Shown here: positions 36,611 to 58,840 of the stretch, piece after piece
Position numbering within the stretch: the first letter of the stretch is position 1
Layout: each line of letters begins with the position of its first letter
Source of the DNA: Gemmatimonadota bacterium
GTDB taxonomy: Bacteria; Gemmatimonadota; Gemmatimonadetes; Longimicrobiales; RSA9
NCBI GenBank assembly: GCA_017881445.1
Contig: JADGQX010000002.1
Location: 610 to 64,609, forward strand
DNA length: 64,000 nucleotides
Direction: 5' to 3'
Program-made: the position numbers and the translations under genes
Notes under the pieces: model-generated
What the model saw: the letters and a program-made list of their open reading frames with translations, nothing else
Databases searched by the model: none
Told to the model about the DNA's origin: nothing

Positions 36611-38953
36611 ATGAAGGGGTACATCAGCCGGTACGCCGTACGCTTGTTCCCGGCGCTGCTCGCCTGTGCCGCAGGCGCTGCTCCCGTTCGGGCCCAGAAC
36701 AGCCCCGTGCAGCTGGGGCAACTCGCGAATCAGGGCCGGGTTACGTTCACCCGCGGCGCAGCCGGCTGGGGCATCCGCATCGATGAGCCCGGGCGCGCGT
36801 CCATGTACCAGGCCCGCCCGCTCCAGCTCCGCACGGCCACCGATTCGGCGCCCGGCCCGGAGCTGGCCGCCGGATACGGCTCCGTCAGCAAGGACGGGAA
36901 CGCCGTGGTGGGCCGCGGCCAGCTGGCACCGGTGTCAGGCGTCACCATCCAGTTCGTGGACCGCTGGAGCATTGCCGGCCCGGTACTCAACTTCGAGCGC
37001 GCGGTCTCGGTGCACGGCTCCGCCGCAGGCGGGTTCAACTCGGTCATTGCCCTTTCCACCGTCAAGGGCTTTACCTTCTCCGAGCTGGACCTGTTCTTCC
37101 CGGGCATGCTTTACAGCGGCGAGCCCGAGCACATCGACCTGCGCGGGGCGGCGGGCCTGACCAACTTCATGGCCGGCCGCATCCAGGACCGCGAGGACAA
37201 CTTCACCATGCCGATCTTCGGCTTCTCCTTCCGGGATGGCCGCTCGATCGCGGTGCTCGACCCCTCGCCGGACGGCAGCACCGTCATGGCGGACACGCGA
37301 GCTGCTCCACAACGCTTTGCCCGAGATGTTCAGCAAGCGCCCCGGCCCGCGGCCGTCATCGAGGCGCGGATGCGTCTGGGCGGGATGGGCGCGTTTCAGA
37401 ACGCGGACGGGGGCGTGGACGTCGCCTACTGGTACCCGGGCAGCATTCCTTCCGCACCGAGGTACCACCCCTATCGCGACGGCCTCACCCAGAGCTATCG
37501 CCTGAAGTACCGCTTCGGCGAGGGCGAGACCTTCCATGACTTCTACCGGAACGCCTGGCGCTGGGGCTGGAACTTGTATGCGCCGAAGCCGGACTACTAC
37601 GATCTGGCGGTGATCCAACGCACGCTGGCGGACCACCTCACTTCGCTGATCGAGACCCGCCCGGAGTGGTCGGGCCTGCCCTTCATGCGCTCGACCATAG
37701 ACGGCAAGGTCAGGGTCGAGTCATCTCCGGTCGGCTGCCATACGGCGCCGCAGTACTGCAACGAGAAGCCGGGCGAGTACCGCTGGTCGCGCGCCATCAT
37801 GGGGTTCGTGGGCAAGAACCTGGAGTCCGCGTCCGAGATCCTGTACGACTCGTACGCGGACTCGAGCGCGCGCGGCGAGGATCACCGCCAGAAGGCGACC
37901 CGGGTGATCGACAGCTTCGTGAAGAAGGTCAAGGTGGATCCGCCCAACGGCTCCGGCTTCAACGTGGAGACCGGCGAGCCGTCCGTGACGAATCCCGAGG
38001 GCAATCACGTCACCTGTTGCAGCGGCCGGGTCTACCTGCGCGAATTCGCCGAAGACATGCGCTGGGTGCTGTGGGCCTACGAGTGGGAGAAAGCACGGGG
38101 CCGCGTGCACGCCGACTGGCTCGACTGGATGACGCGCTTCGGCAACTGGGCGCTGACGCAGCAGGCACCCGATGGCTCGTTCCCGCGCTCCTGGTATCCG
38201 GTGACCGGCGTGGTGCGAGACTCGTCCACCACCTCCGGCTACTTCGTGATGAACTTCTTCACCAAGCTGAGCCAGGTGACCGGGGATCCGAAGTACCTGG
38301 AATCCGCGAAGCGGGCGGGCGATTACGTGTGGCTCAACTTCAACCGCAACGACCACTACATTGGCGGCCCCATCGACCAGGTCAACGGCTTGAACAAGGA
38401 AGCGGCCACGCTGTGTCTGGAGGGCTACCTCGCGCTGTACGAGGCGACGCACGACCAGAAGTGGCTGCGCCACGCCCAGGGCGCTGCCGACTTCGCCGAG
38501 ACGTGGGTCTATGACTGGAACATACCCATGCCCGCGGACGAGAGCGCGGACTCCCTGACCTGGAAGCCGGGCGTGCCCACGCTCGGCGTGAACCGCGTCA
38601 CCGCCGGAGGCGGCGCGGACCAGTGGATGGCGGCCGACGTGGACGAGTACGCCAGGCTCTCGAAGCACACGGGTGACCGGCACTACATGGACGTCGCCCG
38701 CGTGCTGCTGTACGGCACCAAGGCCATGCTCGCGCTGCCCGGCCGCACCTACGACATGCTGGGCCCGGGCTGGCAGCAGGAGCACTGGAGCATGAGCCTC
38801 AACCGCGGGCACGCGAATCACCGCAACGAGTTCCCGTGGGTGCCGGCCAACCACATGAACGGATTGCTCAGCCTGAAGATCTTCGACCCGTCGTTATACG
38901 AGGAGCTGGCTCGCAAGCCGGTCGCGAGCCAGCCGGCCAGCGGGCGGCACTGA
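36611..38953 (+). CDS. unassigned secreted protein family, member A1 (predicted N-terminal beta-rich region plus C-terminal helical-repeat region)
   Basis: The gene is 780 aa with signal MKGYISRYAVRLFPALLACAAGAAPVRAQ. It shares blocks with 42719, 49419 and 53559: MGFVGKNLESA, DGSFPRSW, IGGPIDQVNGLNKEAATLCLEGYLALYEATHDQKWL, ADFAETW, NIPMPAD, PGWQQEHW and WVPANH. I recognise no named family. Confidence 0.85.
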   Translation: MKGYISRYAVRLFPALLACAAGAAPVRAQNSPVQLGQLANQGRVTFTRGAAGWGIRIDEPGRASMYQARPLQLRTATDSAPGPELAAGYGSVSKDGNAVVGRGQLAPVSGVTIQFVDRWSIAGPVLNFERAVSVHGSAAGGFNSVIALSTVKGFTFSELDLFFPGMLYSGEPEHIDLRGAAGLTNFMAGRIQDREDNFTMPIFGFSFRDGRSIAVLDPSPDGSTVMADTRAAPQRFARDVQQAPRPAAVIEARMRLGGMGAFQNADGGVDVAYWYPGSIPSAPRYHPYRDGLTQSYRLKYRFGEGETFHDFYRNAWRWGWNLYAPKPDYYDLAVIQRTLADHLTSLIETRPEWSGLPFMRSTIDGKVRVESSPVGCHTAPQYCNEKPGEYRWSRAIMGFVGKNLESASEILYDSYADSSARGEDHRQKATRVIDSFVKKVKVDPPNGSGFNVETGEPSVTNPEGNHVTCCSGRVYLREFAEDMRWVLWAYEWEKARGRVHADWLDWMTRFGNWALTQQAPDGSFPRSWYPVTGVVRDSSTTSGYFVMNFFTKLSQVTGDPKYLESAKRAGDYVWLNFNRNDHYIGGPIDQVNGLNKEAATLCLEGYLALYEATHDQKWLRHAQGAADFAETWVYDWNIPMPADESADSLTWKPGVPTLGVNRVTAGGGADQWMAADVDEYARLSKHTGDRHYMDVARVLLYGTKAMLALPGRTYDMLGPGWQQEHWSMSLNRGHANHRNEFPWVPANHMNGLLSLKIFDPSLYEELARKPVASQPASGRH

Positions 38954-38967
38954 GAGGTGGAAGGATG

Positions 38968-38993
38968 GGGGAGCGGCCGAGGCCGCTCCCCCA
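38968..38993 (+). terminator. GC-rich palindromic hairpin (element copy 1)
   Basis: GGGGGAGCGGCC-GA-GGCCGCTCCCCC starts 15 nt after the stop at 38953. Confidence 0.55.
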
Positions 38994-39043
38994 TTGCCCC
39001 TTCGGATTGAGCACGGCACGACACTGACGAATCGGTCTACTGA

Positions 39044-40504
39044 ATGAGGAATCGGCCAATGAATACAGCAGCGTTTCATTACCGTAATCCTGATCAATCA
39101 TCTCAGAAACTATCCGTTCTCGAGAAGATCGGCTTCGGCAGCGGCGACGCAGCGGTGAACGTCGTGTGGTCGGCATTGGCGATCATCATCACCTTCTTCT
39201 ACACCGACGTGTACAGATTGAGGGTTGAGCACATCGCGATGCTGGGGCTCCTTCCCCGGTTGATCGATGCATTCGCCGATGTCCTGATGGGCATGTTCAC
39301 GGACAGCCACAGCTCACGCTGGGGCCGATATCGGCCGTACTTTCTGTTCCTGTCCGTTCCATTCGGCATCGCGGTCATGCTCGTGTTCACCACGCCGGAT
39401 CTCTCCTACAACGGCAAGCTGATCTGGGCCTACGCGACCTACATTCTGATGATGCTGGTCTTCACCGCCATCGTCATTCCCTACATCTCCCTGCCTGGCG
39501 TACTGACGGCCGACTCGAAAGAGCGTCTGTCAGCCAACGGGTACCGCCTGTTCTTCGCTAAGGGCGCCTCATTGGTGGTTAACATCTTCGTGCCGATGTT
39601 TGCAGCGAGCTACGCGGCAAAGTGGGGCGCTGCGCAGCTCCCGAAGGGCTACCAGATCGCGATGGCGACGATGGCTGTGATGGCCACGCTGCTGTTCATC
39701 TTCTGTTTCTTCACGACGACCGAACGTGTAACCCTCAAGAGCGATCGAAAGCCGATTGGGGAGCAACTGAGCTTGCTCTTCCGCAACTCTCAGTGGCTCA
39801 TCCTGGCCGGCGTGTGCATTCTCAGCACGCTTGGCTATGTACTTCGCGGATCCGTCGGCTTCTACTACGCCAAGTACTTCCTCCGTGGTGACGCCGCGCT
39901 CCTGTCCGCCTTCATCACCGTCGGTATCATCGGCAACATCCTTTCCATGGTCGCTTCCACGTGGATCACGAAGAAGTACTGCAAGATACAGCTCTTTCGC
40001 TGGTGCCAGATCGTCACCTTCGGATTGAGCGTCCTCATGTTCCTGGTCGTAAAACCGGGGCTTGATGACAGGGTCATGGCCTTCGTTCTGTACTTCATCA
40101 TCAACTTCGTTGTGGACCTCCAGGGGCCAGTGTTCTGGTCCATCATCTCGGAAGCCGTGGACTACGGGCAGGTAAAGAGCGGCAAGCGCGTGACGGGCCT
40201 GGCTTTCGGTGGCATCTCCTGGTGTCAGAAGATGGGCATGAGCCTCGCCGCCGGCATGGCGGGATGGATTCTCACCTACTACAGCTATGTGGCGGACAAA
40301 GCATACAATCCGGCAGTCCCGCAGGATATGTTCACGCTGCGCGGCATCGCACTGATGCTCACGATCATTCCGGGCATCTTCCACCTGGCCACTGGTCTCC
40401 TGATGTATGGATACTTCATCACGGACAAGTACTACGCAGAGAACATCAAGGACAGACTGGCCGTCCTGCAGGGAGCGGAGACGCCGCTGGAGCCCGTCGT
40501 CTAG
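39044..40504 (+). CDS. GPH-family (MelB/XynP-like) glycoside-pentoside-hexuronide:cation symporter
   Basis: LSVLEKIGFGSGDAAVNVVWSALAIIITFFYTDV and FTDSHSSRWGRYRPYFLF (an RxGRRRP-like motif) are present, with about 12 hydrophobic spans. GC is visibly lower than in flanking genes. Confidence 0.85.
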   Translation: MRNRPMNTAAFHYRNPDQSSQKLSVLEKIGFGSGDAAVNVVWSALAIIITFFYTDVYRLRVEHIAMLGLLPRLIDAFADVLMGMFTDSHSSRWGRYRPYFLFLSVPFGIAVMLVFTTPDLSYNGKLIWAYATYILMMLVFTAIVIPYISLPGVLTADSKERLSANGYRLFFAKGASLVVNIFVPMFAASYAAKWGAAQLPKGYQIAMATMAVMATLLFIFCFFTTTERVTLKSDRKPIGEQLSLLFRNSQWLILAGVCILSTLGYVLRGSVGFYYAKYFLRGDAALLSAFITVGIIGNILSMVASTWITKKYCKIQLFRWCQIVTFGLSVLMFLVVKPGLDDRVMAFVLYFIINFVVDLQGPVFWSIISEAVDYGQVKSGKRVTGLAFGGISWCQKMGMSLAAGMAGWILTYYSYVADKAYNPAVPQDMFTLRGIALMLTIIPGIFHLATGLLMYGYFITDKYYAENIKDRLAVLQGAETPLEPVV

Positions 40505-40538
40505 CAACGGTTTCAGCCCAGTACTTTTGAGGCTTATC

Positions 40539-42473
40539 ATGGAAAAAGCGCAACCCGCGCTCAGACTGAGCATCGCCGCCGACAAACCGGGCGCGCGGAT
40601 CAGCCCGGCCATGTGGGGGATCTTCTTCGAGGACATCAATTTCGGAGCGGACGGCGGACTCTGCGCGGAGCTGGTGAAGAACCGGTCGTTTGAATTCCCG
40701 GAGCCATTGATGGGCTGGTCGAAGATCAGCCCGAGCCATGCCCGCGGCCAGCTGTCCATTCAGCATGACGGCCCGTTTGCCCCGGCGAATCCGAACTACC
40801 TGCGCATCGAGTCGCGGGCGACAGCGCCGTTTGGCGTCGCCAACGAAGGCTTCCGCGGCATGGGTGTACGGCAGGGCGAGGCGTATCACTTCTCGGCGCA
40901 CATCCGCAACGTCTCCGGGTCACCGTCAGTGCGCGTTGCCCTGTATTCCGCGCAGGGCCACCTGCTGGATTCGGTCCAACTGCAGGGATTCTCTTCGGAC
41001 TGGAAGAAGTGCACGGCTGTTCTGAATCCTCAGAGCACCGATGCCAAGGCCAGGTTGTATGTTCTGGTGGACGGTGAAGGCGTTGTGGACGTCGACCTGG
41101 TGTCGCTGTTTCCGGAGCATACCTGGAGGAATCGAATCGGCGGGCTCCGCGCCGACATGGTGCAGCTTCTCGCCGATCTGAAGCCCGGCTTCCTCCGTTT
41201 CCCCGGCGGCTGCATCGTCGAAGGCAGCGTGCTCGACTACCGTTACCAGTGGAAGAATACCGTTGGCCCGGTAGAGGATCGGAAGCTCGTCATCAACCGC
41301 TGGAATTACGAGTTCCTGCATCGGCCGGCGCCCGACTATTACCAGTCCTTTGCGCTGGGCTTCTTCGAGTTTTTCCAGCTCTGTGAAGACATCGGCGCGC
41401 AGCCGCTGCCGATTGTCAACTGCGGCATGGCATGCCAGTTCAACTCCTGTGAGCTGGTCCCCCTGGACCAGCTGGGGTCCTACGTCCAGGACGCCTTGGA
41501 TCTGATCGAATTCGCCGATGGTCCGGCGGACAGCACCTGGGGCAAGCTCCGGGCGCAGATGGGCCATCCCGAGCCGTTCAACATGAACATGATCGGCGTG
41601 GGCAATGAGCAGTGGGGGCCGCAGTATGTCGAGCGATACAACGTCTTCGCCGCCGCCATCAAGGCGAAGCATCCTGAGATGAAGCTCGTTGCGGCCACGG
41701 GCTCGGATGCCACCATTTTCCCCAACGGAAAGGCGGAGATTGAATACCTCTGGTCCGAGTGGCGGGCCCTCGAGCCGGAAATCGTGGACGAGCACTTCTA
41801 CCGGTATCCGGAGTGGTTCGCGGAGAATGCGAACCTGTACGATTCGTACGACCGCAACGGCCCCAGATTGCTGGTGGGCGAATACGCCGCTCAGAGCGTA
41901 GGGGTGGCCAGCCCGGACAACAGGAACAACTGGAAGACCGCCCTGTCAGAGGCGGCCTTCATGACGGGACTGGAGCGCAACGCCGATCTGGTAGTCATGA
42001 GCTGCTACGCGCCCCTGTTTGGCCACAAAGAAGCCTGGCAGTGGACGCCCAACCTGATCTGGTGCGACAACCTCTGCGTTTACGGTACCCCGAATTACTA
42101 CGTGCAGAAGGCATTCAGCACCAATCGCGGCGATGTGATTCTGCCCGTCCACCTGAGCGGTGGAGAAGCCGATTCGCAGCCCTCGTGCTTCGCCTCTGCC
42201 ACGCGCGATGAAGCAGCTGGAGAAATCATCGTGAAGGTGGTGAATACCGGGGCTGAGCGAATCACCGCCGGGCTTACGATCAACGGTGCAAGTCAGCTCA
42301 AGTCGACGGGGTTGGCCATGACCCTCAGCGGAGAGCTGGCGGCTGAAAACTCACTTGAGGAGCCCAGGAAGATTGCGCCGGTTTCTGCAACGGTCGCCGG
42401 CGTGAAACCGGAGTTCACGTACACCTTCGAGCCCTACTCCTTGACGGTGCTCAGGCTGGGCGAAAGAGCCTAG
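40539..42473 (+). CDS. GH51 alpha-L-arabinofuranosidase without a signal peptide (cytoplasmic)
   Basis: Blocks are ISPAMWGIFFEDINFGADGGLCAELVKNRSFE, FLRFPGGCIVEG, IGVGNEQWG, and LVGEYAA with the C-terminal beta-sandwich. The start MEKAQPALRL has no signal. The gene lies directly downstream of the GPH symporter. Confidence 0.9.
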   Translation: MEKAQPALRLSIAADKPGARISPAMWGIFFEDINFGADGGLCAELVKNRSFEFPEPLMGWSKISPSHARGQLSIQHDGPFAPANPNYLRIESRATAPFGVANEGFRGMGVRQGEAYHFSAHIRNVSGSPSVRVALYSAQGHLLDSVQLQGFSSDWKKCTAVLNPQSTDAKARLYVLVDGEGVVDVDLVSLFPEHTWRNRIGGLRADMVQLLADLKPGFLRFPGGCIVEGSVLDYRYQWKNTVGPVEDRKLVINRWNYEFLHRPAPDYYQSFALGFFEFFQLCEDIGAQPLPIVNCGMACQFNSCELVPLDQLGSYVQDALDLIEFADGPADSTWGKLRAQMGHPEPFNMNMIGVGNEQWGPQYVERYNVFAAAIKAKHPEMKLVAATGSDATIFPNGKAEIEYLWSEWRALEPEIVDEHFYRYPEWFAENANLYDSYDRNGPRLLVGEYAAQSVGVASPDNRNNWKTALSEAAFMTGLERNADLVVMSCYAPLFGHKEAWQWTPNLIWCDNLCVYGTPNYYVQKAFSTNRGDVILPVHLSGGEADSQPSCFASATRDEAAGEIIVKVVNTGAERITAGLTINGASQLKSTGLAMTLSGELAAENSLEEPRKIAPVSATVAGVKPEFTYTFEPYSLTVLRLGERA

Positions 42474-42509
42474 GATCTGGCGGCTCGCTGGCAATGGCGT
42501 CTCGGCAGT

Positions 42510-42536
42510 GGGGGAGCGGTCCTCGACCGCTCCCCC
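42510..42536 (+). terminator. GC-rich palindromic hairpin (element copy 2, inverted orientation)
   Basis: GGGGGAGCGGTC-CTC-GACCGCTCCCCC starts 37 nt after the GH51 stop. Its flanks (CACCCTTCAGCTCTCAATGG) are the reverse complement of the flank TGAGAGGTGGAAGGATG seen in copies 1 and 3. Confidence 0.55.
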
Positions 42537-42718
42537 ACCCTTCAGCTCTCAATGGCGAGCGGATGATCGCGGTGATGCAGTTCGCACTTTCTGGCGCGCT
42601 TTCGGATCAGCCGTGGCTTTCGAAGTGGACCTGCCGTAAGCACATTCAGTCTGGCGCTACCGCTGGCGGAACAAGACCGACCTGGGACGTGCAGCAACAC
42701 AGACAAGGGGGATTCCTC

Positions 42719-45028
42719 ATGAAGGGGTACATCAGCCGGTACGCCGTACGCTTGCTCCCGGCGCTGCTCGCCTGTGCCGCAGGCGCTGCTCCCGCACGGG
42801 CTCAGAACAGCCCCGTGCAGCTGGGGCAACTCGCGAATCAGGGCCGGGTTACGTTCACCCGCGGCGCAGCCGGCTGGGGCATCCGCATCGATGAGCCCGG
42901 CCGCGCGTCCATGTACCAGGCCCGCCCGCTCCAGCTCCGCACGGCCACCGATTCGGTAGCCCGCCCGGAGCTGGCCGCCGGATACAGCTCCGTCAGCAAG
43001 GTCGGGAACGCGGTGGTAGGCCGCGGCCAGCTGGCACCGGTGTCCGGCGTCACCGTCCAGTTCGTGGACCGCTGGAGCATTGCCGGGCCCGTCCTCAATT
43101 TCGAGCGCGCGGTCTCGGTGCACGGCTCCGCGGCAGGCGGTTTCAATTCGGTCATTGCCCTGTCCACCGTCGAACGCTTCACCTTCTCCGAGCTGGACCT
43201 GTTCTTCCCGGGCATGATCTACAGCGGTGAGCCCGAGCACATCGCGCTGCGCGCGCCGGCGGGGCTGACCAACTTCATGGCCGGGCACATCGAGGAGCGC
43301 GAGGACGGCTTCACCATGCCGATCTTCGGCTTCTCGTTCCGCGACGGCCGCTCGATCGCGGTGCTGGATCCAGCGCCCGACGGCAGCACGGTCGTGGCGG
43401 ACACGCGGGCGACCCGCGGCGCGACCGTGATCGAGGAGCGGATGCATCTAGGCGGGATGGGCGCCTTCCAGAACGCGGATGGGGGCGTGGACGTCGCCTA
43501 TTGGTACCCGGGCAGCATTCCTTCCGCACTGAGGTACCACCCCTATCGCGACGGTCTTACCCAGAGCTATCGCCTGAAGTACCGCTTCGGTGCGGGCGAG
43601 ACCTTCCACGACTTCTTCCGGAACGCCTGGCGCTGGGGCTGGAACATCTATGCGCCGAAGCCGGACTACTACGATCTCGCGGTGATCCAGCGCACGCTGG
43701 CGGACCACCTCACTTCGCTGATCGAGACCCGCCCGGAGTGGTCGGCGCTGCCGTTCATGCGCTCGACCATAGACGGCAAGGTCAGGGTCGAGTCCTCTCC
43801 GGTCGGCTGCCATACGCCGGTGCAGTACTGCAACGAAAAGCCGGGCGAGTACCGCTGGTCGCGCGCCATCATGGGGTTCGTGGGCAAGAACCTGGAGTCC
43901 GCATCCGAGATCCTGTACGACTCGTACGCGGACTCGAGCGCGCGCGGCGAGGAGCACCGCCAGAAGGCCACCCGGGTGATCGACAGCTTCGTGAAGAAGG
44001 TCAAAGTGGATCCGCCCAACGGCTCGGGCTTCAACGTCGAGACGGGCGAGCCATCCGTGACCAATCCCGAGGGCAATCACATCACCTGTTGCAGCGGCCG
44101 GGTCTACCTGCGCGAGTTCGCCGAAGACATGCGCTGGGTGCTGTGGGCGTACGAGTGGGAGAAGGCGAGAGGCCGGGTGCACGCGGACTGGCTCGACTGG
44201 ATGACCCGCTTCGGCAACTGGGCGCTGACGCAGCAGGGAGCCGATGGCTCGTTCCCGCGCTCCTGGTACCCGGTGACCGGCGTGGTGCGGGATTCGTCCA
44301 CCACCTCCGGCTACTTCGTGATCAACTTCTTCACGAAGCTGAGTCAGGTCACCGGTGACCCGAAGTACCTGGAATCCGCCAAGCGGGCGGGCGATTACGT
44401 GTGGCTCAACTTCCAGCGCAACGACCACTTCATTGGCGGGCCGATCGACAACGCGAACGGTATGGACAAGGAAGCGTCCACGCTATCGCTCGAGGGCTAC
44501 CTCGCGCTGTACGAGGCGACGCACGACCAGAAGTGGCTGCGCCACGCCCAGGGCGCTGCGGACTTCGCCGAGACGTGGGTGTACGACTGGAACGTGCCCA
44601 TGCCCGCGGACGAGAGCCCCGACTCCCTGACCTGGAAGCCAGGCGTGCCCACGCTGGGCGTGAACCGCATCGGCGCCGGGGGTGCGGGAGTGGACCAGTG
44701 GATGGCGGCCGACGTGGACGAGTACGCCAGGCTATCGAAGCACACGGGTGACCGGCACTATATGGACGTCGCCCGCGTGCTGCTGTACGGCACCAAGGCC
44801 ATGCTCGCGTTGCCCGGCCGCACCTATGACATGCTGGGGCCCGGATGGCAGCAGGAGCACTGGAGCATGAGCCTCAACCGCGGGCACGCGAATCACCGCA
44901 ACGAGTTCCCGTGGATACCGGCCAACCACATGAACGGGTTGCTCAGCCTGAAGATCTTTGACCCGTCGTTGTACGAGGAGCTGGCTCGCAAGCCGGTCGC
45001 GAGTCAGCCGGCCAGCGGGCGGCACTGA
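42719..45028 (+). CDS. unassigned secreted protein family, member A2 (recent duplicate of A1)
   Basis: The gene is 769 aa and collinear with A1, with mostly identical residues. It lacks the 11-aa segment AAPQRFARDVQQAPRPA found in A1 (TRATRGATVIEERMHLGG versus TRAAPQRFARDVQQAPRPAAVIEARMRLGG). Confidence 0.85.
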   Translation: MKGYISRYAVRLLPALLACAAGAAPARAQNSPVQLGQLANQGRVTFTRGAAGWGIRIDEPGRASMYQARPLQLRTATDSVARPELAAGYSSVSKVGNAVVGRGQLAPVSGVTVQFVDRWSIAGPVLNFERAVSVHGSAAGGFNSVIALSTVERFTFSELDLFFPGMIYSGEPEHIALRAPAGLTNFMAGHIEEREDGFTMPIFGFSFRDGRSIAVLDPAPDGSTVVADTRATRGATVIEERMHLGGMGAFQNADGGVDVAYWYPGSIPSALRYHPYRDGLTQSYRLKYRFGAGETFHDFFRNAWRWGWNIYAPKPDYYDLAVIQRTLADHLTSLIETRPEWSALPFMRSTIDGKVRVESSPVGCHTPVQYCNEKPGEYRWSRAIMGFVGKNLESASEILYDSYADSSARGEEHRQKATRVIDSFVKKVKVDPPNGSGFNVETGEPSVTNPEGNHITCCSGRVYLREFAEDMRWVLWAYEWEKARGRVHADWLDWMTRFGNWALTQQGADGSFPRSWYPVTGVVRDSSTTSGYFVINFFTKLSQVTGDPKYLESAKRAGDYVWLNFQRNDHFIGGPIDNANGMDKEASTLSLEGYLALYEATHDQKWLRHAQGAADFAETWVYDWNVPMPADESPDSLTWKPGVPTLGVNRIGAGGAGVDQWMAADVDEYARLSKHTGDRHYMDVARVLLYGTKAMLALPGRTYDMLGPGWQQEHWSMSLNRGHANHRNEFPWIPANHMNGLLSLKIFDPSLYEELARKPVASQPASGRH

Positions 45029-45041
45029 GAGGTGGAAGGTT

Positions 45042-45067
45042 GGGGGGGCGGTCGAGGCCGCTCCCCC
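45042..45067. terminator. GC-rich hairpin (element copy 3, one mismatch), between convergent genes
   Basis: GGGGGGCGGTCGAGGCCGCTCCCCC starts 14 nt after the stop at 45028. The opposite-strand gene ends at 45176. Confidence 0.45.
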
Positions 45068-45175
45068 GCTGCCGTGACGCCATTGCCAGCCAGACCTGCA
45101 CCGATGGCGGAGCGCCGACCCTGCCGTCCGGGAAGGCCGGGAAGCTCGTGCTTTGCTGCTCAACCCTCAATGTTC

Positions 45176-46252
45176 TCACTTACTACCCGATGGAATTGTG
45201 TAGTATTCGATCGTGTCCCTCCAGGTGAGCTCTTCACCCGGCTGGATATCGACGGCGATATAAGGCTCTACCGCCAGCACCGTCCGAATCGACCACAACA
45301 TGGACCTGATCAGCGGACGATCGCCGACGATCCTGACCCCGGTTCCTGTCTTCTTGTTCTCGATGATGACTTCGTGGTCCCTGGCGCTGTCACCAAAGCC
45401 CTGGTACAGCACTATCGCTTCGTCCTGTCCCGCCAGCGGCCTCCGGTAGACGACCTCATTCCCTCGGACTTCGGCCATCTCCGCCTTGGGCAGCCGGGTC
45501 GCTTTGATCTCGAAAGGCACCCTGAAGGTGAAGTCCGGCCCTGGCGGCTGCTTGTCCATCATCATGAAGTGATGGTTGTACACGTTGCTGTTGATGGCGC
45601 GTTTACCGGTGTTCTTCATGCTGTGCTCGATCACCAGCACCGGTTTCCCTTTCTCCAGCCGCACCACCTTGTGGTACACGTAAGCCCAGCCGAGATCCGG
45701 CGCGGACAGCTCCTGCGTGAATTCGACCGAATCCTTCCGCTTCCTGACCGTCCACTTGCCCGGGTCCAGAACGTCGTAGGGCACAAAGCGGTTGTACCTC
45801 CCATCACCCCTTCGCAGCACGCCCACTCCGAGTTTGATGAAAGTGCCACCCGGCTGGGCCTCGTCCCATCCCAGAGGCGTCTCGAACTCGTTCACGGGTC
45901 CGGCTAGCGCGCTGCAGGGTCCGGACACAATTTCCGATCCCCGGAAGACCCAGTTCACGACCTTGGGGTCCACCCGGTCGTACCACACTCCATAGAATTC
46001 GTGGCCCTTGTAGACCAGGCTGTAGACAGCGCCGGACCAGTCGAAGCGGGTGGAGCGATAATACCCGTTGCGCGCATCCGGCAGATACAGCTTCGCCGTT
46101 ATCTGTCCGTTCGAAATCTCCGTCTGCGGAAAGTCCGCTGCGGGTCGTGGCGTCGGGCCGAAGGACAGGCTGAACAGCATGCTGCCGGGCAAGGCTGCCG
46201 CCACGATGGAGCGCAGGACTTGCCCGATCCAGAAGGTAGTTATCAAGGTCAT
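45176..46252 (-). CDS. hypothetical exported protein, unknown function
   Basis: The 358-aa ORF has normal amino-acid composition and a hydrophobic N-terminus (IGQVLRSIVAAALPGSMLF). Its GC is lower than the surroundings. AGGA lies 11 nt before the ATG. I recognise no motif. The beta-rich sequence is vaguely mutarotase-like, but that is only an impression. Confidence 0.55.
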   Translation of the reverse strand: MTLITTFWIGQVLRSIVAAALPGSMLFSLSFGPTPRPAADFPQTEISNGQITAKLYLPDARNGYYRSTRFDWSGAVYSLVYKGHEFYGVWYDRVDPKVVNWVFRGSEIVSGPCSALAGPVNEFETPLGWDEAQPGGTFIKLGVGVLRRGDGRYNRFVPYDVLDPGKWTVRKRKDSVEFTQELSAPDLGWAYVYHKVVRLEKGKPVLVIEHSMKNTGKRAINSNVYNHHFMMMDKQPPGPDFTFRVPFEIKATRLPKAEMAEVRGNEVVYRRPLAGQDEAIVLYQGFGDSARDHEVIIENKKTGTGVRIVGDRPLIRSMLWSIRTVLAVEPYIAVDIQPGEELTWRDTIEYYTIPSGSK

Positions 46253-46417
46253 GTCGAAATCGTCCTCAGGAACCAGAATCGAATGAAGTTATGTAGAGGA
46301 CATCAGATTGCCGGCGGTAGTCGCCACTTCAACCCCCAGAACCCGGCCGGGCAGCCACCTGCGCTGCGCCGACCGGGCCGTCTAGCATTGACTACACCCA
46401 TCGCGACGTGCGTCGCT

Positions 46418-49072
46418 TCAGTGTGTCCCCTTCGCCTCCGGTGCGAGCATATCGTTCACGGCCATCGTCAGGAAGATGTAGGCTCCACTGAACGCGATCT
46501 CGTACTCGTTCTCACCCCACAGGAAGGGCCAGTCGTCCAGGTTCTCCGGGAAGTCCGGCTTGAGAACCAGCACGCCGGGCACGATGCCGCCGGCAATGAA
46601 CGTGAAGTCCGCGCGGTTGTTGCCGTAGGCCACGTGCTTGGGGCGAGCTCCGACCCCGGACACGAATGAATAGTTGTGGTACGGGTGCGTCCCGAAGAGG
46701 TAGTCCAGGCCGCGAGTGACCAGCTCGGTGCCGAAGAGATCGGGGTACGCCTTGTGGAGGTAGTAATTGGTCGTCGCCCAGTTGACCACGCCATTGTCAC
46801 CGCCCCAGCTGCCTGTGCCACCGACCGGCACGCCGTAGGGATTCTGCTTGTTCAGACTGTCGACGGAAGCCCGGTACCGCTCGGCATAGGGGCGCAGCTT
46901 TCGAGCGTAGGCGGCATCCATGAACGGAACCGCCTGCGCCGCGAGCGTGAGGTTCTGGTCTCCGAACCCGACGAAGCCGCCGACCCGGTTCACGGGCCGG
47001 TCCAGGGCCGCCCAGATCAGGCCGTTGAACTGGTCGAGGTACTCCTGCTTCCGGGTGGCGAGCCACAGCTGCAGCGCCGCCGAGGCCGCGCTGCCGCCGT
47101 CGAATCCACGAGGCCGGACCTGCGTGGGGGGCGGGGGCGGAGCGGCCCGTGCCGTCGCATACGCCTTCTCCGCGAGAGAGAGGCATTCGACCGCCAGGGA
47201 ATCGTTGAAGCCGCGCAACGACCGGCTGGCCGCGGCCAGCCCGTCGACCCCGAGATAGCTGCTGCTGGGCGGCGAGGGCATGTAGACCCAGCGGTCGTCG
47301 TTCGTGCCGCTCCGGCCGTCCCGGACCTCGTAGGGCTTCAGTGACGGGTCGTAGATCAGGTTGTCCGTCTGGGTCGAGGCGTCACCCAGGTGCGTGTACG
47401 TGTGCATCTGGGCGTCCACCACGCCGCGCGACAACCCACCGATCGTGCGGAACTGTGCCGCGACCTGCAGCGCGCCGTGCTCAAGCTGCTCCAGCACGTC
47501 GGGTCGACCGTCCGGCTGGTGGATGGCCACGTAGCGGAGCTTCTGGTCGACCAGAGTCTGGTCGTGCTGCGGGTGGAAGGTCTCCCAGATGTTGGCGAGC
47601 TCCGCGACCATGAGGCCGTGGTGGCCTCCCTGCATGTCGAAGTCGCCGGCGTCGAACCAGCCACCCACCGCCAGTCCGGGGATCCGCTCGCCCGGCTTGT
47701 ACGGCGTATTCGTCGTGTCGCTCGTCCGGTAGCCGTCGAAGTGCTGCTCGTGCAGCGGCGCCTGCCGCGCATCATCGAGATGGGCCGCGCCGTGCCAGAC
47801 GCGATAGGCCTCGTTCACGAACATGTGGTCCATCGAGACCGGAATGTACACGTCGAGGGTCGGGTGCCAGACGCGCTCGTAGACGTCGTCCGCGATCGGG
47901 AAGGCGCCCGTCTGCTGCGTGCCGTACCGGATCAAGTAGATGCCGGGATCCTTCACCGCCGAGAAGTCCGCCACCACGTAGTTGTAGCGCAGGTACTTGC
48001 CCCAGGGCTGGATCTTCACCTTCAGCTTCTCCACCTGGCGCCCGTCGGACCCGACCTCGATCAGCGACGCCGTCGGCAGCGGCTTATCGTTCGGATCCAG
48101 CTCGATGACCGCGCGCTTCGGCTGCGAGGGGAGGTAGCCGACCTGGGAGAAGCCGATGTTGGGGGGGCGCGTCCAATTGGGGACCGTGTGCGGCTCGACG
48201 TGCCATTCGGCCACCTTGCCGGTCGTTCCGGTGGCGAGCAACGAGCGCACCACGTACCAGCCATTCTGGGCGAGGTTACGTCCGTCGAACACCTGCAGAT
48301 CACGCAGTGACGAGTGCATCGTGACGGACCGCGCCGGGTCTTCCGGGGCCATCAGCAGGGTTTTCCCGGCGGCAAAGGGGAGCGCCTCGATGTAGTCCGG
48401 GTGCCCATGGAGGTCGAAGGTCGAAAACCCCGATAACCCCGAAGGGTACATCGGGATCTTCCGCGCTTCCGGAACCGACTCGGTCGGCCCAGTCGGATAC
48501 CGCGGGAAGATCCCGGGCTTTCCGTCCACCACATACGTGTGCTCCCAGAACTCCGTAGGCCGGAACTCCATGTTGAGCGCGGCGTGACCCTCGAGCGCCG
48601 CAGGCACCGGCTTGTCCACGAAAACGGCGACGTTGAAGCCGGCGCCCTCCGGCTTCACCACCATGCGCGAGTTGAAGTCGTAGGCCTCGTAGCGGAGCGT
48701 CACCTCGATGGTGTTGGTCGCCTTGTCGACCTTCCGGTCGAGGAGCAGCGGGAGCAGGTCCCACTGCTCGGGCGTGGGACTCAGGCGCACGGCGCCGCCC
48801 GTCGCGGTGCGCACCCCGCTCTGGATGAGCATCATGCCGGCCAGGTGGTCATCGAAAAACACGCCGGTGTACGTGTTCTCGAAGACGAGAACGTTGACCC
48901 CCCGCTTTGCGAAGTATCCCTGGTCGTTGAGGGTCAGCTGCTGGTCCTGCGCCGATCCGCTTGCCGGCAACAGACCGAGCGCAAGGACGAGAGTCGAGAC
49001 CAGCCGGAGCGTCCACGCCGGCGCGCAAGCGGCCCGGCGAGGAAGTGCGTCCGTGTCTGTGTGCTGCCGCAT
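46418..49072 (-). CDS. GH9-family glycoside hydrolase with an Ig-like domain and a ~330-aa unrecognised N-terminal region, secreted
   Basis: GH9 blocks are present: GLAVGGWFDAGDFDMQGGHHG, an alpha/alpha-barrel body, and C-terminal DDWPFLWGENEYEIAFSGAY. I chose ATG 49072 (MRQHTD...LVLALGLLPASGSAQ) rather than the track start at 49330. Confidence 0.8.
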   Translation of the reverse strand: MRQHTDTDALPRRAACAPAWTLRLVSTLVLALGLLPASGSAQDQQLTLNDQGYFAKRGVNVLVFENTYTGVFFDDHLAGMMLIQSGVRTATGGAVRLSPTPEQWDLLPLLLDRKVDKATNTIEVTLRYEAYDFNSRMVVKPEGAGFNVAVFVDKPVPAALEGHAALNMEFRPTEFWEHTYVVDGKPGIFPRYPTGPTESVPEARKIPMYPSGLSGFSTFDLHGHPDYIEALPFAAGKTLLMAPEDPARSVTMHSSLRDLQVFDGRNLAQNGWYVVRSLLATGTTGKVAEWHVEPHTVPNWTRPPNIGFSQVGYLPSQPKRAVIELDPNDKPLPTASLIEVGSDGRQVEKLKVKIQPWGKYLRYNYVVADFSAVKDPGIYLIRYGTQQTGAFPIADDVYERVWHPTLDVYIPVSMDHMFVNEAYRVWHGAAHLDDARQAPLHEQHFDGYRTSDTTNTPYKPGERIPGLAVGGWFDAGDFDMQGGHHGLMVAELANIWETFHPQHDQTLVDQKLRYVAIHQPDGRPDVLEQLEHGALQVAAQFRTIGGLSRGVVDAQMHTYTHLGDASTQTDNLIYDPSLKPYEVRDGRSGTNDDRWVYMPSPPSSSYLGVDGLAAASRSLRGFNDSLAVECLSLAEKAYATARAAPPPPPTQVRPRGFDGGSAASAALQLWLATRKQEYLDQFNGLIWAALDRPVNRVGGFVGFGDQNLTLAAQAVPFMDAAYARKLRPYAERYRASVDSLNKQNPYGVPVGGTGSWGGDNGVVNWATTNYYLHKAYPDLFGTELVTRGLDYLFGTHPYHNYSFVSGVGARPKHVAYGNNRADFTFIAGGIVPGVLVLKPDFPENLDDWPFLWGENEYEIAFSGAYIFLTMAVNDMLAPEAKGTH

Positions 49073-49418
49073 GTTCCGCTCCGGTTGGGGGGAGGGTCGG
49101 AGAAATGATGTGTGCAACCGGGCTGACAAGGTCATAACCCGCGCGCTTGCAGGGACCGACAGCGTGGGGCGCCCCAGGGCCACGCTTTTCCGGACACTTC
49201 GGCCCGTTGCTCCCGGGCCCTTCGTGCTCACGGTTTCGGCCGCATGGTTTCCTGCCGCGAGCGGCTGAATGACCGGGCGAATCTGAAGCGCAGGGGCACA
49301 GCACAGCAGTACAAGATTGGTTGTCCCCAAAACCGGGTCAAGTGTTATTGAAATGGTACGCGGGTTGGTTTAGGTTGGGGCATCCTCGAAAATTGCCGTT
49401 CCGGCCGAAGGAGGCAAC

Positions 49419-51848
49419 ATGCCGGAGAGCCATCCGGTGTCGAAAGCTCCGTGGATCTGCTCGCTCGCCGTGCTGTCCGTGCTGACGCAGCTATCCTGCG
49501 CCCATGGCCCTCCCGGTGCGGTCGGCCCCAATCGCGTTGGGGCGAACCCCGCCGGAGTGGTGCAAGGCACCGCGGCTCCCACCCTCAGGGCCGTTCGCAA
49601 CAGCTCGGGTGAGTGGGGGATCGAACTGGCCGGCGTGGAAACGGCAAGACTGATGCAGGCCCAGCCGGCGCAGCTCGAGCTTTATTCGCCGGACGGGCAG
49701 ATCCGGCAGTTCGCGGCGGGCTACGATGCCGTGCAGCAGGCCGCGGGAGAAGTCGCGGGGAAGGCCGTGATCGACGCGGGAGGCGGTGCGAGCATCACCG
49801 TAGCCGACCATTGGGCCCTCGAGGACGGTGTGGTCACCCTCGACCGTACCGTTGCCGTAACCGGCACGCGGCCGGGCGCAGGATTCTCTTCCGCCATTCG
49901 CCTGTATACGGTGCCCGAGCTCACCTGGCCCGACGTCAGCTTCCTGGCCCCTGGCCTGCTCTACGGCGATCCCACCTACAACGGGCCGCGCTCGCCCGGC
50001 GGAACCCTGTACGATGCGGACCGGCAGTTCACCATCCGTGAGGACTTTCTGCCGGCGCCGCTGTTCGGTGTGGCCCTGCGTAATGGCGAAACGTTCACGC
50101 TGCTGGACATGGCGCCGCAGGGACACAGCACCCTGGGAGAGACCCGCACCGGCCTGAATCCCGGAGTGCTGATCGATGAGCGACTCTCTTTCGGCGGACT
50201 GGGCGCCAGGGAAGCGGCTAACGGCGGCGTCGAAATCGGTTTCTGGCTGCCGGGTAGTACACGGGTGTTGCCGCGGCCCCAGTTCGGCGGGCCCGGTGGC
50301 GGGGCACCAGCTGGCGGGCGCCCGGCCGGGGCGCCTCCTGCCGGCCCACCCGCCGCTGGCGCACCCCGAGCAGGCGCGGCCGCTGCCGGCGGGGCGCAGG
50401 CCTCAGAGCCTACGCAATTCGAGTGGTCGCGCCGATACAACCCGGTGCAGGCAGGCTTTCGGCAGCATTACCGGATCGGTTTCCGCTTTGCTGCCGGTGA
50501 GTCCTTCCCGGATCTGACGCGCGACGCGTATCGCTGGGCCTGGGCGGTTCTGAAGCCGCAGCTGAACTGGCACGACATGGAGGTGGTGCGGCGCAGTCTG
50601 ACGGACCAGCTCTCGAGCCAGGTCTACACCATCGACGGTCGTACCGGCCTGCCGTTCATCGTCTACACCCATTCCGGCGAAGTCTGGCGCCGCGACGGCG
50701 ATCCGGACTTCTACTGGCGGGCCACCATGGGCTTCGTCGGCAAGAACATCGAGGCGGCCGACCAGTTGCTGCGTGAAGCGGAGCGCGATCACGGCCCGCG
50801 CGGGCAGAAGCTGCGGCAGCAGGGCTTGGACGTGATCAGCACCTTCATTCGACTGGTGCCGATGAACCCGCCCACCAGCACGGGCTTTAATCTCCGGAAC
50901 GGCGGTCCGTCCATGACCAACCCGCCCGTCTGGTACGTGCGGGAGGCGACGGAGGACATGCGGATGCTGATGGAAGCCTACCGGCGCGAGCGGGCGGCGG
51001 GTCGCGAGCATCCCGAGTGGATCAGGTGGTGCCAGGACTTTGCCGATTGGCTGATCAAGCTGCAGCGTGCGGACGGCTCCTTCCCACGCTCCTTCATGAT
51101 CAACACCAGCGAGATCCGGGAGGAATCAGGCACCACCAGTTACAACGTGGTGCCGCTCTTCGTGATGCTCAGCCAGGATCGGCACGATGACCGGTACTTC
51201 GATGCTGCGGTCCGGGCGGCCGAGTACGTGTGGCGCAGCTTCGGCACGCGCGGTGTGTTCATCGGCGGAGCGATCGACAATCCCAATATCACGGACAAGG
51301 AGGCCGGTCTGCTGTCCATGGAGGCCTTCCTCTTCCTGTACGAACGGACGAAGCAGCCGAAGTGGCTGCACCGGGCACAGGTGGCGGGTGACTTTGCCGA
51401 GAGCTGGATGTGGCTCTGGAACAACCCGATGCCCGATGATGCCAACGACGATTCGCTGATGTGGAAGCGGAGCGTGCCGACCGTCGGGGTGCAGGGCATC
51501 ACTGCGCAAGTGGCCGGGCACGTAGACCAGTACCTGGACTGGTCGGTGCCGGCCTACGCGAAGCTATACCGCTACACCGGCGACGGGCACTACCGCGAGC
51601 TGGCCCGGATCCTCTTGCACAACACCAAGGGGATGATGGCCATGCCCGGCCGCCTGCACGGCATGATCGCGCCCGGGTGGCAGACGGAGAACTGGCGCAT
51701 GGGCGCGGCCCGCGAGGGGCGAGGCTTCGGCACGCCGGAGAAGTGGATGCCCTGGGTGACCACCAATCACCTGTACAGCATCACCGGCCTGGAGCAGTTC
51801 GATCCGGAGCTGTTCGCGGAACTGAGTGCCCGACCCCGGGGCAACTGA
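49419..51848 (+). CDS. unassigned secreted protein family, member B
   Basis: GGAGG lies 5 nt before the ATG, and the gene is 809 aa. Blocks are MGFVGKNIEAA, DGSFPRSF, IGGAIDNPNITDKEAGLLSMEAFLFLYERTKQPKWL, GDFAESW, NNPMPDD, VDQYLDW, PGWQTENW and WVTTNH. A Gly/Pro/Ala low-complexity insert lies at 50281..50410. Confidence 0.85.
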   Translation: MPESHPVSKAPWICSLAVLSVLTQLSCAHGPPGAVGPNRVGANPAGVVQGTAAPTLRAVRNSSGEWGIELAGVETARLMQAQPAQLELYSPDGQIRQFAAGYDAVQQAAGEVAGKAVIDAGGGASITVADHWALEDGVVTLDRTVAVTGTRPGAGFSSAIRLYTVPELTWPDVSFLAPGLLYGDPTYNGPRSPGGTLYDADRQFTIREDFLPAPLFGVALRNGETFTLLDMAPQGHSTLGETRTGLNPGVLIDERLSFGGLGAREAANGGVEIGFWLPGSTRVLPRPQFGGPGGGAPAGGRPAGAPPAGPPAAGAPRAGAAAAGGAQASEPTQFEWSRRYNPVQAGFRQHYRIGFRFAAGESFPDLTRDAYRWAWAVLKPQLNWHDMEVVRRSLTDQLSSQVYTIDGRTGLPFIVYTHSGEVWRRDGDPDFYWRATMGFVGKNIEAADQLLREAERDHGPRGQKLRQQGLDVISTFIRLVPMNPPTSTGFNLRNGGPSMTNPPVWYVREATEDMRMLMEAYRRERAAGREHPEWIRWCQDFADWLIKLQRADGSFPRSFMINTSEIREESGTTSYNVVPLFVMLSQDRHDDRYFDAAVRAAEYVWRSFGTRGVFIGGAIDNPNITDKEAGLLSMEAFLFLYERTKQPKWLHRAQVAGDFAESWMWLWNNPMPDDANDDSLMWKRSVPTVGVQGITAQVAGHVDQYLDWSVPAYAKLYRYTGDGHYRELARILLHNTKGMMAMPGRLHGMIAPGWQTENWRMGAAREGRGFGTPEKWMPWVTTNHLYSITGLEQFDPELFAELSARPRGN

Positions 51849-51901
51849 GCGGCTTCGATTCCCTTTGCCAACGACTACCCGTTCCGCTGATGGAGGCTTG
51901 C

Positions 51902-53512: not shown

Positions 53513-53558
53513 CGGTTCACGGACGACACTGGCCATCTGCATTCGAGAGAAATGAGCC

Positions 53559-55811: not shown

Positions 55812-55829
55812 AGTCGCTGGCAACAGCAA

Positions 55830-55860
55830 GGGCGCCCGCCGCCACAGGCGGCGGGCGCCC
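55830..55860. terminator. perfect 14-bp-stem hairpin between convergent genes
   Basis: GGGCGCCCGCCGCC-ACA-GGCGGCGGGCGCCC starts 19 nt after the stop at 55811. The opposite-strand gene ends at 55949. Confidence 0.6.
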
Positions 55861-55948
55861 CCGTCGACCTCGATGTCAGATGGGCACGGGCCGTGGGGAG
55901 CTCGCTTCCCCCTCGAGGCCTCGCGAGAGGACGTTCAAACGCTGCGAT

Positions 55949-56692
55949 CTACTTCACGAAAACCAGATCGCCGAATTGAGCCGGTGCATGGGGATGAGGC
56001 CAGTTTAGCTTGGAGTCGGCCCAGACGCTCAGGCGCCGGTTCGGTTCCACGCCATCCCAGCGGTTCAGGTTGGCGGTAAAGACGGTTCCAGCCTGCGGTG
56101 GCTTGGCCATATCCGAGAAGTTCTCCCAAGGTATGGCCATTTCGACGGTCCAGCCGCGGTCCTTATCCTCGCGCTGATTGAGAGTACCGTCAATCTGGAT
56201 GGCGATTTTGACGCCCTCCATCTGAAATCGTTTGATGTAGTACTGGGCATCGGCACTGTACGCGCAGAAGTAGTCCATCATCGCGCCGCGCACGTTGACC
56301 TCAATGCCGTAGTACCCGGCGATCTGGGAGGGCCGGACATTCAGGAATAACTCCACGGTATCGTCGCGGTAGACCCAGGCGTCCCGTTCCGTGAACTGCG
56401 CGACGATGTCCGTGTCCTCGACTTCGTAAGCGACATAGAGGTTGGTATCGTCCCAGAGCAGCCGGGCGTGCGTCTTCTGCTTTGCCCCGGTCTGTTGCTC
56501 CCACGGGAAGATGAACTCGAAGGCCGGGCTCGCCTGCGACCACTCGTTTGCGTTGACATGGCCGTCGATGGTGATCGGCGACGTCGCCCTCCGGACCTCG
56601 TAGCGCGGCCTCTGCGACTCCGTCTGACAGAGCGCACTCCGGGGGCCGAACAGCAGTACTACGCCAACCGTAATTCGGACTATCTGTTTCAT
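55949..56692 (-). CDS. CBM9-like (carbohydrate-binding family 9 / DOMON-like) secreted protein
   Basis: The 247-aa protein has a signal peptide. ITIDGHVNANEWSQASP, ARLLWDDTNLYVAYEVEDTDI, YRDDTVELFL and WTVEMAIPW fit the CBM9-like domain pattern. It starts 15 nt downstream of the 56708 gene on the same strand. Confidence 0.7.
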   Translation of the reverse strand: MKQIVRITVGVVLLFGPRSALCQTESQRPRYEVRRATSPITIDGHVNANEWSQASPAFEFIFPWEQQTGAKQKTHARLLWDDTNLYVAYEVEDTDIVAQFTERDAWVYRDDTVELFLNVRPSQIAGYYGIEVNVRGAMMDYFCAYSADAQYYIKRFQMEGVKIAIQIDGTLNQREDKDRGWTVEMAIPWENFSDMAKPPQAGTVFTANLNRWDGVEPNRRLSVWADSKLNWPHPHAPAQFGDLVFVK

Positions 56693-56707
56693 AATCGGCT
56701 GCAGTCC

Positions 56708-58840: not shown

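Follow-up and report, generated by a model that had tools for sequence, protein, structure and literature searches.

The 64,000 nucleotides of Gemmatimonadota contig JADGQX010000002.1 analyzed here (the window) raise the question of what is encoded by five large open reading frames (ORFs), termed P1 to P5, that are interspersed with genes for arabinose-related enzymes. A reading made from the letters of the DNA alone (the sequence-only reading) had been unable to assign the five proteins to any family and had proposed them as a candidate new family of carbohydrate-active enzymes (CAZymes) with a six-hairpin domain. This proposal was supported by tests of sequence, structure prediction, domain fusion and genomic context. 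The five proteins belong to a new sequence family inside a well-known fold and functional class. On balance, they are probably an unclassified family of glycoside hydrolases (GH), in which two invariant carboxylates, in a putative pocket at the interface of a helical barrel and a beta-sandwich, would act on arabinose-bearing side chains alongside esterases and arabinofuranosidases.

Sequence family and predicted fold

The five ORFs were all present and gave stop-free translations: P1 (36611..38953, + strand) of 780 amino acids (aa), P2 (42719..45028, +) of 769 aa, P3 (49419..51848, +) of 809 aa, P4 (53559..55811, +) of 750 aa and P5 (56708..58840, −) of 710 aa. The conserved blocks by which they had been grouped (MGFVGKN.E.A, DGSFPRS[WF], GG..D..N..KEA, DFAE[TS]W, N.PMP.D, DQ[WY], PGWQ[QT]E.W and WV..NH) were all found, the sole deviation being the presence of ADQW rather than VDQW in P1. 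In a MAFFT alignment of the translations (A1), P1 to P4 were alignable from end to end and 73 columns were invariant across the five proteins. Identity to P1 was 93% for P2, a recent duplicate of P1, 48% for P4, 39% for P3, which represents a different subfamily, and 24% for P5, a member of a diverged subfamily termed subfamily B. Sec-type N-terminal signal peptides were read by eye from the sequences of P1 to P4, those of P1 and P2 containing a lipobox-like LLAC. P4, which is 100% identical to database protein P0001, was the protein used for modeling, and residue numbers are those of P4 unless stated otherwise.

Scans of P1 to P5 against Pfam-A (2025) and NCBIfam (June 2026) returned nothing above the curated cutoffs. 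The sub-threshold Pfam fragments derived from six-hairpin families, namely, GH76, GH47, GH127, GH88, GlcNAc 2-epimerase and C5-epimerase. The GH76 model (PF03663; cutoff, 25.9 bits) scored 25.4 bits on P2 and 24.0 bits on P1, over model positions 160 to 257 of 366, and 11.5 bits on P3, with no match to P4 or P5. Scores for PF07944 (GH127/GH146) on the five proteins ranged from 14.5 to 20.6 bits against a cutoff of 24.9 bits; this model reached 27.7 bits in one distant multidomain member only (P0233), in which no single stretch was significant. PDB chain sequences (2026 copy) were searched with single sequences and with a 58-sequence profile, and no full-length match was detected. The best profile match, and the only one with an E value of less than 1e-6, was to a 70-aa GH76 hairpin stretch (E 3.6e-7), while weaker matches to polysaccharide lyase (PL) family PL10, AGE isomerases, LanC and terpene cyclases occurred via a Q-x-x-D-G-S/T-F repeat motif. 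Homology searches yielded 115 proteins for P4 and 28 for P5, named either "hypothetical protein" or for an appended ricin domain only, and a search with an alignment as the query contributed one further unnamed protein (P0301) and no added annotation. The earlier claim that these proteins have no confident match to a known family was hence borne out, as the Pfam-A, NCBIfam and PDB searches all remained below threshold.

An AlphaFold2 model of P4, generated from the 58-sequence alignment (pLDDT 93.9, pTM 0.93), consisted of an N-terminal beta-sandwich (residues 33 to 306) and an (alpha/alpha)6-like barrel (residues 311 to 746) in which 14 helices are paired as hairpins. As a prediction, this model upheld the guess of a beta-rich N-terminal part followed by a six-hairpin barrel, and the paired-helix (alpha/alpha)6 barrel places the modeled fold within the six-hairpin glycosidase-like superfamily. 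The beta-sandwich domain of P3 contained a Pro/Gly/Ala-rich low-complexity insert of ~50 residues (PRPQFGGPGGGAPAGGRPAGAPPAGPPAAGAPRAGAAAAGG...; P3 residues ~288 to 338, window positions 50280-50430) without a counterpart in the other paralogues.

Comparison of the whole P4 model with the PDB by Foldseek placed the PL27 lyase 5NO8 first (E 2e-11, TM 0.39 to 0.43, 10% identity), followed by enzymes of GH94, GH15, GH116, GH52, GH65 and GH63 (E ~4e-10 to 3e-6, TM ~0.2 to 0.3, 8 to 12% identity). A model of the barrel only, generated from 12 sequences (pLDDT 78), gave 144 matches at an E value of ≤1e-3, the top ones all being (alpha/alpha)6 proteins. Identities of 10 to 14% were observed in this comparison for GH76 (TMq 0.48 to 0.56, TMt 0.65 to 0.68), AGE-type epimerases and isomerases (TMq 0.53 to 0.57) and GH88 (TMq 0.54), and PL27 fell to rank 42 (TMq 0.31). 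The significant neighbors were carbohydrate enzymes throughout, whether by layout or by barrel, and the structural comparison, which the sequence-only reading had proposed, produced no close match among the Foldseek results for the PDB. As modeled, the architecture is common to PL27 and enzymes of clans L, O and Q and the generic barrel geometry to GH76, GH88 and AGE, and the family is close to none of these.

Thirteen residues (P166, Y170, P202, P265, G382, W481, G500, D567, E575, G637, D649, E703 and W722) were invariant in alignment A2, which comprises 58 sequences including P5. R195, R455, R504, K574, H670 and R711 were additionally invariant in the main branch (alignment A9). Among the four acidic residues put forward from the sequence as catalytic candidates, E575 (of KEA), D649 (of VDQ) and E703 (of QQE) were invariant in the 58 sequences, but E582 (of LEGY) was not, falling just short of invariance in the main branch and being replaced by Phe in P5; D567 was a further invariant acidic residue beyond these four. 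No cysteine was present among the invariant or ≥90% conserved columns of A2 or A9, and the lack of a conserved main-branch cysteine argues against a GH127-type mechanism. The confidence of the barrel-only model dropped at its residues 331 to 345 and 380 to 409, corresponding to P4 residues 637 to 651 and 686 to 715, which carry D649 and Q701/E703. Comparison of the two models suggests that these loops are ordered through contact with the beta-sandwich. As the loops bearing D649 and E703 lose confidence once the beta-sandwich is removed, the active site may be situated where the two domains meet, like that of GH15, GH65 and GH94 enzymes.

Subfamilies, origin and spread

The relationship of P5 to the other proteins was visible by BLASTP against P4 as a single 154-aa stretch (25% identity, E 6e-9). 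When a profile of 52 main-branch sequences without P5 (A9) was compared by hhalign with a profile of 22 P5-type sequences (A3), a match with a probability of 98.9% (E 3.5e-17) was obtained over 404 columns spanning the whole barrel, i.e., the C-terminal domain. As judged from these profiles, P5 is a genuine but distant homologue of P1 to P4, in agreement with its initial description as a diverged fifth member. Its Tat signal was also confirmed, the twin-arginine motif being TRREF with R8 and R9 at least 90% conserved within the subfamily. Three cysteines (C342, C478 and C526; P5 numbering) were invariant in subfamily B in alignment A3, and a fourth, C455, was nearly so. Three of these four cysteines occupy positions at which the main branch has V384, V513 and F561, adjoining conserved motifs. 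These cysteines, together with the twin-arginine signal, may point to a variant that contains a cofactor or metal and would be exported in a folded state. What is left of a sixth copy, of the P5 type, was located at 58893..58975 (−): a remnant of 83 nucleotides from its 3′ end, with 82% identity to the corresponding end of P5 (56706-56788). Its translation (DWQRAWPAARRLTTLMNWLNWKDFGA followed by a stop) mirrors the C terminus of P5 (EWLVAWPAAHRFTTLMNWPDWKDFEG followed by a stop), indicating that the relic reported previously is real.

The presence of several paralogues had been attributed to a massive expansion within the locus, an explanation that was not sustained. The closest relatives outside the window exhibited 84 to 87% identity to P1 and P2 (84% for P1 with its best orthologue, P0016), 90% to P4, 76% to P5 and 62% to P3, compared to 25 to 46% between paralogues of the window. 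For P3, the orthologue in question is P0058, and identity to the window paralogues was 35 to 39%. A simple local gene-family expansion was ruled out, since the orthologues elsewhere are closer than the paralogues; hence, the locus gathers four old subfamilies (P1/P2, P3, P4 and P5) and has undergone one recent duplication. This duplication, also seen as repeat families D1 to D4, involved 36600-38998 and 42708-45073, with 93% nucleotide identity. Values of 0.035 for dN and 0.215 for dS (dN/dS, 0.16) indicated that P1 and P2 have both been maintained under purifying selection. A 74-nucleotide inverted repeat (76% complementary; 42484-42557 and 45020-45093) flanks the duplicated P2 almost exactly and may have been left behind by the duplication mechanism or may be due to chance in GC-rich DNA, the GC content of the window ranging from 61 to 71%. 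Two or three family members were found in tandem in eight other loci (L001, L058, L071, L041, L035, L038, L049 and L031), with three members present in the first of these, from a Gemmatimonadetes metagenome-assembled genome (MAG; VEPF01000192.1). Co-location of several members is thus recurrent and not peculiar to the window.

A search of representative clusters (50% identity) detected 2,874 clusters at an E value of ≤1e-3, 1,634 at ≤1e-10 and 695 at ≤1e-30, and more than 518 loci were present in species-representative genomes. The best 80 of these loci were distributed among Gemmatimonadota (the closest, at 86%), Acidobacteriota, Planctomycetota, Verrucomicrobiota, Bacteroidota, Ignavibacteria and Anaerolineales. 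Protein searches added Actinomycetota (Glycomyces and Mycetocola), and subfamily B was also present in a Peptostreptococcaceae MAG, so that eight or more phyla, Chloroflexota included, contain the family. The cultured carriers seen were Acidisarcina polymorpha and Glycomyces tenuis only. In long members, the family domain was the sole module other than carbohydrate-binding modules (CBM), with the remainder being of a binding or anchoring type: six F5/8-type-C stretches and SLH in P0233, and RicinB, Laminin_G_3 or a T9SS sorting tail in others. An N-terminal CBM9_1 was fused to the family domain in at least 12 homologues. The family therefore exhibits the general features of a CAZyme module, namely, CBM fusions, secretion and occurrence in polysaccharide loci.

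The window locus and its counterparts in other species

The neighbors that had been named from the sequence were all recovered by Pfam. A PF00756 (CE1-type) esterase (34651..36504, +) is encoded directly upstream of P1, and an MFS_2 sugar symporter of the glycoside-pentoside-hexuronide type (39044..40504, +; PF13347, E 7e-104) and a GH51 alpha-L-arabinofuranosidase with a CBM4_9-like domain (40407..42473, +; PF22848 and PF06964) are encoded between P1 and P2. A GH9 gene (46418..49330, −; PF00759 and PF02927), whose product has an Ig-like CelD_N domain, is situated amid an otherwise arabinose- and esterase-centered locus; GH9 is normally a cellulase or glucanase family. The GH43 ORF between P3 and P4 (51461..53512, +; PF04616, E 7e-69) has its domain from residue 202, and its translation probably starts beyond the P3 stop. 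A CBM9_1-like protein gene (55949..56692, −; PF06452, E 6e-18) shares the strand of P5 and starts 15 nucleotides past the P5 stop, and upstream of P5 are two GH43 genes (58993-60144 and 60288-61973, both −) and a GH51-like gene (61981-63978, −). The ORF downstream of P2 (45032-45907) was also considered as a CBM9-like or fusion-partner gene. It had no Pfam match, did not resemble the N-terminal extension of P0022 and is unlikely to be a gene; it was rejected, the CBM9-like gene proper being that at 55949-56692.

The remainder of the window encodes a GH51 enzyme (172-1821, −), a GH43 enzyme (1960-3345, −), a LacI regulator (3450-4709, −), an araD-like class II aldolase (7039-8391), a COesterase-type carboxylesterase (22775-24442, +), a GH54 arabinofuranosidase (24633-27968, +) and a BD-FAE esterase (29872-30747, +). 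A 590-aa BNR/CBM35-like protein (27993-29765, +) gave weak matches to BNR_2 (E 6e-4) and CBM35 (E 8e-5) and could, on the basis of these matches, be a divergent beta-propeller glycosidase with a CBM, possibly a GH93-like exo-arabinanase. In total, the window contains at least four GH51 or GH51-like genes, five GH43 genes, a GH54 gene, four esterase genes, the LacI regulator and the araD-like aldolase. The presence of a SusC-like TonB-dependent transporter and a SusD-like protein (13880..18576, +; Plug, TonB_dep_Rec and CarboxypepD_reg, with SusD_RagB) marks the window as a polysaccharide utilization locus. As this pair is found in a 65% GC genome whose nearest relatives are Gemmatimonadota MAGs, it constitutes a Bacteroidota-style locus outside the Bacteroidota.

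Some parts of the window were less readily interpreted. The ORF at 8283-10982 (+) has an N-terminal HAD-hydrolase match and a weak GH51-like match (ASD1) that begins at residue 520, probably due to the merging of two adjacent genes in the ORF call, the other explanation being a real fusion. The ~1.4 kb from the P2 stop to the GH9 stop (45029-46417) contains three ORFs without a Pfam match (45032-45907, +; 45176-46252, −; 46001-46669, +) and is apparently either noncoding or the site of an unrecognized gene. Long ORFs at 4655-5878 (−), 5770-6819 (−), 19411-20721 (+), 20743-21753 (−) and 30686-32359 (−) also lacked Pfam matches, at an E value of 1 or 1e-3, and may be further components of the locus or ORFs of the kind that arise spuriously on the opposite strand when GC content is high.

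ORFs were called in 80 loci from other species, and non-family ORFs flanking the family members (at most two per side) were subjected to a Pfam scan, giving 258 proteins from 77 loci. Esterase-type neighbors were represented by PF00756 (n = 15), COesterase (n = 13), BD-FAE (n = 13), SASA (n ≥ 9) and tannase/feruloyl esterase (n = 2), and glycosidases by GH43 (n ≥ 8), GH54 (n = 5), GH3 (n = 5), GH51 (n ≥ 4), GH127 (n = 4), GH97 (n = 3) and GH67 (n = 2); seven sulfatases were also detected. In 12 of the 77 species, a homologue of the CE1-type esterase of the window was encoded at most two genes away from a family member, and a homologue of the window COesterase adjoined the family in 12/77. An Opitutus locus contained GH43, esterase, alpha/beta-hydrolase and SASA genes, while a Glycomyces locus contained GH43-ricin and LacI genes, and GH2, GH36, GH30 or GH95 was present in other loci. 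The recurring theme points to esterified, arabinose-decorated plant glycans and is looser than arabinan and non-exclusive. The sequence-only reading had described the interleaved genes as encoding arabinan enzymes; the arabinose-related part of that description was retained, but the context points to esterified arabinose-bearing glycans generally and not to arabinan specifically.

Candidate activity and alternative explanations

Several known families resemble P1 to P5 in part, and membership was considered for each. The PL27 Rha-alpha-1,4-GlcA lyase BACCELL_00875 (5NO8) is likewise secreted, is directed at plant glycan side chains and has a beta-sandwich followed by an (alpha/alpha)6 barrel, but this layout is common to many GH families and, hence, non-discriminating. 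The two differ in the low TM scores and 10% identity reported above and in context, the family being surrounded by arabinofuranosidases and esterases rather than arabinogalactan-protein enzymes. Membership of PL27, judged by sequence similarity to BACCELL_00875, BT0263 or BACFIN_07013, was rejected, as 5NO8 was absent from the PDB profile matches at an E value of ≤10 and ranked 42nd with the barrel. The GH76 alpha-1,6-mannanases (BT3792, 4C1S; Aman6, 4BOK) were the best barrel neighbors and gave the leading PDB profile match; however, they lack the N-terminal beta-sandwich, which accounts for ~275 residues in the family, identity was 11 to 14%, and the sequence match covers ~70 to 90 residues, i.e., one helix hairpin with generic Y-L-x-x-A and L-Y-x-x-T motifs. 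The Pfam scores below the cutoff, the TMq values and the additional beta-sandwich led to rejection of GH76. The GH127/GH146 beta-L-arabinofuranosidases (PF07944) share a six-hairpin barrel, an occurrence in arabinose-related loci and recurrent faint PF07944 matches with the family. GH127 enzymes have a Zn-bound Cys nucleophile within a Cys/Glu zinc site and, in contrast to the family, have the barrel first and beta-domains after it. This assignment was rejected because the Pfam matches were below the cutoff, the main branch has no conserved Cys and the subfamily B cysteines occupy other positions. Enzymes of GH15, GH65, GH94, GH116, GH52 and GH63 have the same two-domain arrangement of beta-sandwich and (alpha/alpha)6 barrel but have no sequence similarity to the family, and their substrates are glucans and xylosides. 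GH139, a poorly annotated (alpha/alpha)6 family, is similar in occurring in plant-glycan loci of soil Verrucomicrobia and Bacteroidota (PMC12282258). Its 2-O-methyl-alpha-L-fucosidase BT0984 (9HYQ/9HMB) has a three-domain GH95-like fold with a C-terminal beta-sandwich (PMC12282258), and up to two copies are present per genome (PMC12282258, PMC10154630). GH139 was excluded because the two-domain P4 model lacks a C-terminal beta-sandwich and 9HYQ/9HMB were unmatched in the PDB profile search.

If the family is hydrolytic, the barrel would contain a glycoside hydrolase active site composed of D567, E575, D649 and E703 together with W481, W610, W614, W722 and the invariant basic residues. Two carboxylates would most likely function as general acid and general base, like those of other six-hairpin glycosidases. 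The proteins would act in the periplasm or at the cell surface of a Gemmatimonadota-like bacterium, and their substrates would be oligosaccharides of esterified arabinose-decorated plant polymers, such as feruloylated or acetylated arabinoxylan or pectic arabinan. Their partners would be the CE1-type, COesterase-type and BD-FAE esterases and the GH43, GH51 and GH54 arabinofuranosidases, and the released sugars would enter arabinose catabolism through the MFS_2 symporter. The four old subfamilies would most likely differ in linkage specificity. A more detailed proposal, which we put forward tentatively and regard as doubtful in its full form, is that P1 to P5 are the founding set of a new GH (or lyase) family with an activity not provided by any known family, namely, cleavage of a linkage in the esterified arabinose side chains of arabinoxylan or arabinan that is accessible only with or after a feruloyl or acetyl esterase, with distinct subfamily specificities and with a cysteine or metal center in the Tat-exported subfamily B replacing main-branch hydrophobic residues.

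A number of points weigh against assignment as a hydrolase of arabinose-bearing side chains. The lining of a single pocket by the invariant carboxylates is putative, and the barrel similarity (TM ~0.55, 10 to 14% identity) is generic, so that catalytic residues are not transferable by homology. Neither the databases nor the literature searched for reports of new families, the coverage of which was incomplete, yielded a characterized member, and novelty was judged against Pfam-A, NCBIfam, the PDB and the literature, with CAZy and dbCAN outside the comparison. The contexts are varied, as exemplified by the sulfatases and by GH2, GH36, GH30 and GH95, and the substrate assignment is hence soft. 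Furthermore, the position of PL27 as top match and the many invariant basic residues make a uronate-directed lyase or hydrolase possible. A polysaccharide or oligosaccharide lyase would operate by beta-elimination beside a uronic acid, for example, in side chains of glucuronoarabinoxylan or arabinogalactan protein, with the invariant Arg, Lys and His residues neutralizing the carboxylate and serving as base or acid, as in PL27. Consistent with this explanation, 5NO8 has the same layout and the best whole-protein E value, R455, R504, K574, H670 and R711 are invariant, weak matches were obtained to PL10 (1GXM, E 4.5e-4), PL2 (PF06917; precomputed, subfamily B) and Pec_lyase, and GH67 and GH2 are occasional neighbors. 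We nevertheless consider a lyase unlikely, as PL27 ranked below GH76, GH88 and AGE when the barrel was compared alone and gave no signal in the PDB profile search, no GH88/GH105 unsaturated-uronyl hydrolase or uronate catabolism gene was present among the window genes scanned, and four invariant carboxylates are more hydrolase-like.

An absence of cleavage appears even less probable. The proteins, having been co-opted into polysaccharide loci, would then be inactive glycan-binding or scaffold proteins, or polymer-level epimerases or isomerases similar in type to AGE or glucuronyl C5-epimerase. The AGE enzymes among the barrel neighbors and a weak D-glucuronyl C5-epimerase profile match (E 0.0016) could be cited for this. 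However, the substrates of AGE enzymes are free sugars in the cytoplasm, whereas the family is secreted and fused to CBMs and surface anchors, a hallmark of depolymerizing CAZymes; the invariance of charged residues over very deep divergence would also favor catalysis, and both recent duplicates are under purifying selection. A different explanation concerns novelty and is compatible with a hydrolase: the family could already be numbered in CAZy while lacking both a Pfam or NCBIfam model and a structure, since CAZy founds families on single characterized proteins, ahead of Pfam. There is little likelihood of this, given that Pfam-A 2025, NCBIfam and the 2026 PDB sequences gave no match above threshold, that members are labeled "hypothetical" or named for the ricin domain, that there are few cultured carriers and no description in the literature searched, and that GH139, the obvious structure-poor candidate, was excluded.

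New GH families of the six-hairpin fold are found regularly, and the unclassified GH family favored here would be a further example, with ~700 to 2,900 clusters that are invisible to Pfam, NCBIfam and the PDB. The four subfamilies lying side by side in the window provide a ready panel for expression and specificity screening and, if they are enzymes, an accessory activity that could be considered for cocktails used in biomass saccharification. If this is an enzyme family, then one of the common steps by which soil and sediment microbes break down decorated hemicellulose or pectin is currently unannotated, and metagenomic inventories of carbon turnover would miss it.

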